DNA of 64,000 bases from Escherichia coli (GTDB lineage Bacteria > Pseudomonadota > Gammaproteobacteria > Enterobacterales > Enterobacteriaceae): assembly GCF_003334815.1 (NCBI RefSeq), contig NZ_QOWO01000001.1; one strand, given 5' to 3'. The stretch's first letter is position 1, and the number at the start of each line of letters is the position of its first letter. The translations under genes were made by a program, and so were the position numbers. The notes under the pieces are model-generated. The model had not been told where the DNA came from and did no database searches. It worked only from the letters and a program-made list of their open reading frames with translations. This document shows positions 3,360-3,567 of the stretch, in pieces.

Positions 3360-3567
3360 GAGTTTTACTCCCTGTTTCAACAATCATCCTATTTTGCCAT
3401 ATCAGAAAAATAACATAGCGGTATAAATCAACAATTCCATATGAAATTGCTGCTACCACCAATACAACTTTAACTGCCTTAAATCAAAAATTGTCGCAGC
3501 AAGGTTAACTAAAATCCCAGTTCGTTAACATTTTTGCGTTTTGATAGCGCAACCTTCAGGAAAAATT

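Follow-up and report, generated by a model that had tools for sequence, protein, structure and literature searches.

The 208-bp spacer between ubiT and ubiU (positions 3360-3567 of the 64,000-nucleotide stretch of Escherichia coli DNA analyzed here, hereafter the window) carries, as we conclude with high confidence, three promoters and two noncanonical Fnr activator sites, of which F1 serves ubiUVp and F2 serves ubiTp2. The locus is the already characterized E. coli ubiT/ubiUV control region (Arias-Cartin et al. 2023, mBio, PMC10470549), with the same DNA, the same F1 and F2 sites, and the same three promoters. Published experiments have proven that Fnr occupies the region, that expression depends on it, and that mutations in either site have an effect. 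Fnr control of ubiT and ubiUV is thus already known, and our analysis adds nothing new on that point. What it adds to PMC10470549 is that the sites match the consensus in one half only, that they score below genome-wide prediction thresholds, and that their conservation can be given in numbers; it also adds the conserved nonconsensus halves, a GTTAAC dyad, and a leader hairpin.

The spacer is identical to that of K-12

Gene calls were transferred from the RefSeq annotation of a 99.9%-identical genome and from that of MG1655. ubiT (2835-3359, minus strand; also present in the list of open reading frames) starts with GTG at 3359-3357, while ubiU (3568-4563) and ubiV (4572-5450), both on the plus strand, form the Fnr-activated operon. 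According to this annotation, positions 3360-3567 are exactly the divergent intergenic region. An earlier note on this DNA had placed the spacer at these positions correctly, but gave its length as 184 bp instead of 208 bp. No base of the spacer differs from K-12 MG1655, so that published K-12 data hold here directly, base for base; across ubiT-ubiV, the sole change relative to MG1655 is a G-to-A at 4231 within ubiU. The region 2800-4600 was matched at 95-100% identity by 5425 of 5426 complete genomes. The Shine-Dalgarno core of ubiU, AGGA, is found in the sequence at 3558-3561 (plus strand), 6 nt before the ATG, and the CAGGA at this place is kept in the alignment described below.

On the other side of the spacer, ubiT overlaps the start of yhbS by 7 bp (2835-2841), and the two genes have been reported to form a single operon (PMC10710024). 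yhbS, renamed hqbA, encodes an acetyltransferase that modulates RNA binding by Hfq. Fnr co-induces hqbA with ubiT, and an internal hqbA promoter within ubiT has been suggested by a published study.

F1 and F2 match the Fnr consensus in one half only

The earlier note had expected an FNR-type site, TTGAT-N4-ATCAA, and had found no canonical one by eye. This observation held, as we detected no match with two or fewer mismatches in 3360-3567. A search allowing three mismatches returned the two best matches of the spacer, GCGGTATAAATCAA at 3418-3431 and CTGCCTTAAATCAA at 3474-3487, each with three. This level is near chance, with 286 matches in 64 kb and about 0.9 expected per 208 bp. Both matches are the reverse complements of the published Fnr sites: 3418-3431 corresponds to F2 (GCGGT-ATAA-ATCAA on the plus strand, published as TTGATTTATACCGC), which serves ubiTp2, and 3474-3487 to F1 (CTGCC-TTAA-ATCAA on the plus strand, published as TTGATTTAAGGCAG), the class II activator site of ubiUVp. 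In each of them, one half is a perfect ATCAA and all three mismatches fall in the other half. The earlier note, which saw only weak palindromic candidates in the region, thereby passed over two functional sites. The likely reason is that, on the plus strand, both show ATCAA.

We scored the sites with an Fnr matrix built from 63 ChIP-bound sites (Myers et al. 2013, Table S6), all of which pass the threshold of that study and have a minimum of 11.9 bits with our matrix. In a scan of the window, F1 reached 8.5 bits, which ranks 21st of the 64,000 window positions (top 0.03%). F2 reached 1.3 bits and rank 238 (top 0.4%), a level at which about 0.7 matches are expected in the region by chance. Judged by these scores, F1 would be a fair candidate, and F2 would not be distinguishable from background. 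In agreement with this, the best motif reported by Myers et al. 2013 under the yhbT/yhbU peak has an ln(p) of -8.72, which falls short of the -10.75 that they required for a prediction. The earlier note would have taken a weight-matrix scan without a site above background as evidence against Fnr control; with F2 at only 1.3 bits and rank 238, such a rule would wrongly reject this site. This calls for caution in scans that use the sequence only, since a functional and deeply conserved Fnr target may lack a canonical box, and a weight-matrix scan does not reveal one of the two sites here, F2.

The two sites also resemble each other beyond the Fnr box. They share a 13-nt direct repeat, TAAATCAA[C/A]AATT, at 3424-3436 and 3480-3492, 56 bp apart, so that the likeness between F1 and F2 runs 5 nt past the 14-bp box.

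Elsewhere in the window, the top match to the Fnr matrix is TTGATGAAGATTAA at 50308-50321 (14.9 bits), a candidate located in npr (ptsO), within its 3' end and about 215 bp ahead of yrbL. Another match, of 11.7 bits, overlaps it at 50318-50331. The yhcC/gltB spacer contains ATGACCTGGATCAA at 56195-56208, a published ChIP-bound Fnr site.

Each site lies at a class II position of its own promoter

The -10 hexamer of ubiUVp is TAAAAT at 3510-3515 (plus strand), and transcription starts at about 3523-3524, at the G of the second of two GTTAAC hexamers. On the minus strand, ubiTp2 appears to use the extended -10 element TGGCAAAAT at 3399-3391, a hexamer assignment made by us, with a start at about 3384. 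The constitutive distal ubiT promoter, ubiTp1 (3450-3487, minus strand), starts at about 3450-3451 (PMC10470549). Its -10 is probably TATTGG at 3464-3459, to judge from the sequence and from a conserved CAATAC block, and the good half of F1, TTGATT at 3487-3482, probably serves as its -35, at a spacing of 17 bp. Neither ubiUVp nor ubiTp2 has a recognizable -35 hexamer. A generic scan of 3300-3650 for sigma70 promoters and terminators missed all three promoters and returned a single chance-level match at 3541-3569.

With a class II site at -41.5 and a -10 at -12 to -7, a gap of 22 nt is expected between the two elements. F1 is separated from TAAAAT by 22 nt, and F2 from the minus-strand CAAAAT by 21 nt. 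Both sites thus lie over the -35 region at the distance typical of class II, about 41.5 bp upstream of the start; the center of F2 is at about -40.5 from ubiTp2, and that of F1, when counted from the published start, is at -42.5 or -43.5 and not at -41.5, the two values reflecting different ways of counting "36 nt upstream". This arrangement resembles known class II Fnr promoters; of the 23 activated promoters whose start is known, 19 have the site near -41.5 (Myers 2013). The likeness extends to the position of the site over the -35 region and to the Fnr-dependent anaerobic expression of ubiUVp and ubiTp2. Both sites differ from the training sites of Myers in their scores (8.5 bits for F1 and 1.3 for F2, as compared to at least 11.9), and F1 differs from the usual class II Fnr site in its distal half, CTGCC, a deviation that is conserved.

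The published data fit this geometry. According to Arias-Cartin et al. 2023 (PMC10470549), F1 precedes the ubiUV start site by 36 nt, while F2 precedes the proximal ubiT start (P2) by 33 nt and follows the distal one (P1) by 19 nt. They described both sites as fitting the Fnr consensus well. Their GFP fusions demonstrated that Fnr activates ubiUVp and ubiTp2, but not ubiTp1. Five-base mutations of F1 led to the loss of anaerobic UbiV production, while mutations of F2 eliminated the anaerobic induction of UbiT and kept its basal level. The F1 mutation had no effect on ubiT, and the F2 mutation had none on ubiUV. For F2, the evidence in this study comprises mutagenesis, GFP fusions, and SPA westerns. 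A separate study using Flag-UbiT westerns found an about 35-fold anaerobic induction, which was dependent on Fnr and not affected by ArcA.

Occupancy of the locus by Fnr has been detected by ChIP at yhbT/yhbU in three studies (Grainger 2007, Myers 2013, and Federowicz 2014). The site predicted by Grainger et al. 2007, TTTAACTGCCTTAAATCAAAAATT, is F1. Federowicz et al. 2014 observed the Fnr signal in both fermentation and nitrate respiration and scored Fnr as activating both yhbUV and yhbST. We placed the literature coordinates on the window by calibrating them on the yhcC/gltB Fnr site at 56195-56208. The Fnr summit of the Myers 2013 ChIP-seq then falls at about 3482-3490, on F1, and their sigma70 peak, which rises anaerobically, at about 3388-3395, on the ubiTp2 -10. 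When the fnr mutant was compared with the wild type, the expression ratio was 0.07 for yhbU, 0.115 for yhbV, and 0.49 for yhbT. We found no in vitro Fnr footprint on F1 or F2 in the published literature, and the assignment of Fnr binding to the exact 14-mers is therefore based on ChIP resolution and mutagenesis. Together, the three ChIP studies and the F1 and F2 mutants (PMC10470549) bear out the expectation of the earlier note that the region is under FNR control. Its statement that ubiT and ubiUV act only under anaerobiosis was imprecise, as ubiT also has the constitutive P1, and expression of both ubiUV and ubiT has been described in microaerobiosis, at 0.1% O2.

The two sites work independently, each for its own promoter. 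In the absence of O2, [4Fe-4S]-Fnr dimers bind F1 and F2, and at each site, about 41 bp upstream of the start, Fnr overlaps the -35 region and, as we infer from the class II geometry, would contact RNA polymerase directly. Fnr bound to F1 switches on ubiUVp (-10 at 3510-3515, start at about 3523), while Fnr bound to F2 switches on ubiTp2 (extended -10 at 3391-3399, start at about 3384). The Fnr-independent ubiTp1, with its start at about 3450, provides the basal aerobic expression of ubiT. Fnr on F1 would cover the -35 of ubiTp1, and Fnr on F2 would sit just past the P1 start; P1 could in this way be shut off as P2 comes on.

A natural insertion was found in the spacer of E. coli strain EEC_W5 (L123 761-1744), where an IS1 lies at the equivalent of window positions 3442-3449 with an 8-bp target duplication, TGAAATTG. 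The element is located between F2/ubiTp2 and the ubiTp1 start; it thus cuts the constitutive ubiT promoter off from the gene and leaves both Fnr-dependent promoters intact.

F1 and its spacing to the -10 are conserved from Enterobacterales to Alteromonadales

To survey other species, we scanned one genome per species with a degenerate pattern that encodes the UbiU N terminus MELLCPAGN, which yielded 120 loci. We kept the 106 whose UbiU shares at least 55% identity with that of E. coli and for which no less than 200 bp of DNA was available upstream; these cover Enterobacterales, Vibrionales, Aeromonadales, and Alteromonadales. U32 paralogues of Veillonella and Clostridia that the pattern also retrieved were dropped, their identity being about 33-43% against the 55% cut-off. 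The composite motif NTG-N6-RTCAA, followed exactly 22 nt on by TAnnnT, was present in 92 of the 106 ubiU upstream regions and in only 2 of 2120 composition-matched shuffles. The commonest -10 form among the 92 was TAAAAT (n = 43). Because the 22-nt stretch between F1 and the -10 differs between orders, the match is not explained by common descent alone.

Next, we aligned the spacers of 28 Enterobacteriaceae genera and calculated the mean identity to the E. coli base. The ATCAA half of F1 (3483-3487) reached 1.00 and its weak half (3474-3478) 0.99. For F2, the ATCAA half (3427-3431) was at 0.98 and the weak half (3418-3422) at 0.79. The ubiUVp -10 (3510-3515) and the ubiTp2 extended -10 (3391-3399) were at 0.98 and 0.96, respectively, as compared to about 0.5 for the intervening spacers and 0.72 for the whole spacer (3360-3567). 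Both F1 and F2 are thus conserved in orthologous promoters.

Our count agrees with a survey of Pseudomonadota (ISME J 2024, PMC11707229), which reports at least one candidate FNR site at 87% of ubiTUV loci; where ubiU and ubiT are divergent, 96% of the arrangements have an FNR site between the two genes, in a position compatible with activation. That study forced MEME to palindromic 14-bp motifs, so the half-site asymmetry that is visible here would not appear there.

The weak half of F1 and a GTTAAC dyad are conserved

The distal half of F1 is CTGCC in 67 of the 92 species, and the C at its first position is found in 86 of 92, in a range from E. coli to Shewanella. A canonical TTGAT-N4-ATCAA at F1 was present in one species only among the 92, Salinivibrio (L032). 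The conserved weak half also persists in Vibrio loci that have no ubiT within 1.5 kb upstream, as determined by tblastn. This half keeps the TG needed by Fnr, and the remainder is fixed in a nonoptimal form. Because PMC10470549 calls the sites good fits to the consensus and PMC11707229 forces palindromes, the asymmetry of F1 seems not to have been discussed.

A second conserved element lies over the ubiUVp core promoter, where GTTAAC hexamers at 3504-3509 and 3524-3529 flank the -10 and the start site. An imperfect inverted repeat of 18 nt, I1 (3495-3512 and 3521-3538, 78% complementary), has them at its core, and the conservation of the two hexamers in Enterobacteriaceae is 0.97 and 0.90. We considered whether a further factor or constraint acts on GTTAAC-N14-GTTAAC over the -10 and the start, which would be compatible with the action of Fnr. 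The inverted repeat is centered on the core promoter, and both hexamers are near-invariant in Enterobacteriaceae and present also in Pectobacterium and Brenneria, while neighboring positions vary. However, a literature search for proteins that bind at yhbT/yhbU gave only work on Fnr, and no regulator for the dyad was found. The element is also absent in Vibrio, Shewanella, Pantoea, and Proteus, all of which retain F1. Furthermore, the first hexamer directly adjoins the -10, while the second begins at +1, at the mapped start; a constraint on the core promoter or on the initial transcript is therefore as likely as an operator. Overall, we consider a further input through the dyad unlikely.

In Serratia oryzae, both GTTAAC hexamers are replaced by GTTGAC. 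When the dyad was compared with the consensus sequences of known regulators, neither TrpR, OmpR, PhoP, NarL, and TorR nor ModE, MarA/SoxS, Fis, and IHF gave a convincing fit.

Both the conserved CTGCC half of F1 and the GTTAAC pair look undescribed. Taken together, the conserved weak half-site and the dyad are the only possible new lead from this analysis, and they hint at tuned affinity or extra control. The deviation of F1, along with the dyad, might have been selected, either for a deliberately low affinity for Fnr or for reading by a second factor; we put this forward tentatively and with more doubt than conviction. If it were true, low affinity for Fnr could give anaerobic ubiquinone synthesis its specific low-O2 threshold.

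The palindrome downstream of the ubiUV start may form a leader hairpin

As its palindromic candidate, the earlier note had named a sequence at about 3535-3553. The palindrome exists, one base away, at 3534-3552 (plus strand), and reads TTGCG-N9-CGCAA (TTGCGTTTTGATAGCGCAA). Within the ubiUV transcript, it occupies about +11 to +29 of the 5' leader. It is a true 5+5 inverted repeat, or one of 7 bp if a single G-T pair is allowed, and its loop holds a TTGAT half-site, features that could suggest an oxygen-responsive operator for Fnr or for another dimeric regulator. However, its halves are spaced by N9, while Fnr needs N4, and no 14-mer overlapping 3534-3552 scores above 0 with the Fnr matrix. 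The repeat comes after the mapped start of ubiUV transcription, and its size is at chance level: with loops of 3-12 nt, we counted 4 perfect 5-bp inverted repeats in the spacer as compared to 2.7 +/- 1.9 in shuffles, 29% of which reach the same count. Conservation is poor as well, since 3534-3552 is among the least conserved sequences of the spacer (0.47 versus 0.72 overall), and TTGAT is changed to TTGAC already in E. albertii. Furthermore, the mutation of F1 by itself abolishes UbiV production (PMC10470549), which argues against an operator at 3534-3552. An operator for Fnr or another protein at this palindrome is thus not supported, and we regard it as extremely improbable; the FNR-type candidate of the earlier note does not stand, and Fnr acts on ubiUV through F1.

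Next, we examined whether 3534-3552 might instead act in the RNA, as a stem-loop in the leader that affects the stability or translation of the ubiUV mRNA, which would be compatible with activation by Fnr. The element is transcribed and is predicted to fold as a 7-bp stem with a 5-nt loop (UUGCGUU/AGCGCAA). In most of the 28 Enterobacteriaceae leaders, a predicted hairpin begins about 12-16 nt after the predicted start, even though the sequences are unrelated. In the E. albertii leader, the U-G pair becomes C-G, and z-scores were negative in 26 of the 28 leaders. These z-scores are, however, small (-0.87 for E. coli, and -0.02 for a 63-nt fold), and leaders rich in GC fold readily. The leader of Pseudocitrobacter has no hairpin, and no Rfam match was obtained for the leader element. 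RNAalifold found no consensus structure for 13 ubiUV leaders, because their lengths and sequences are too different for a reliable alignment, and the conservation of the hairpin can thus be read from single-sequence folds only. Given these predictions, a leader stem-loop at 3534-3552 is plausible; that it influences the ubiUV mRNA is a possibility toward which we remain more skeptical than inclined.

The Rfam scan covered 2700-4000, and its only hit was CRISPR-DR22, which reached 21.9 bits where the gathering score is 50 and was dismissed as a chance match.

ArcA and IscR are unlikely to add to the oxygen control

Last, we evaluated whether ArcA and/or IscR bind the spacer and add to its oxygen control. 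For ArcA, we used a matrix derived from 115 published boxes, for which the training minimum is 9.6 and the median 15.7 bits. The best matches in the spacer came near this minimum, with 9.5 bits at 3399-3416 (minus strand) and 8.6 bits at 3491-3508 (plus strand), and the conserved GGTTAAC is similar to one half of an ArcA element, with GGTTAATTAAA found in some genera. Both matches remained below 9.6 bits, however, so that no ArcA box, a pair of direct TGTTA-like repeats spaced by 11 bp, was found in the spacer at or above the scores of known boxes. The match at 3399-3416 falls in a nonconserved part of it. The GTTAAC hexamers are 20 bp apart, whereas ArcA repeats are spaced by 11 or 22 bp. The experimental data point the same way: yhbT, yhbU, and yhbV are absent from the ArcA ChIP and expression tables of Park 2013, they appear in the Fnr tables but not in the ArcA ChIP-chip tables of Federowicz 2014, and a published arcA deletion did not affect the induction of UbiT. 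For IscR, the best type 1 and type 2 matches in the region had 9 mismatches of 25 or 26, and no match to the consensus strings within 3 mismatches was found in the whole window. Thus, of the three regulators for which the earlier note had proposed scans, only Fnr was substantiated, with the published ChIP summit on F1, and a contribution of ArcA or IscR appears highly unlikely.

The top match of the window to the ArcA matrix is ATGTTGATGTATTGTAAA at 30285-30302 (minus strand), which, at 17.6 bits, scores above the median of the known boxes.
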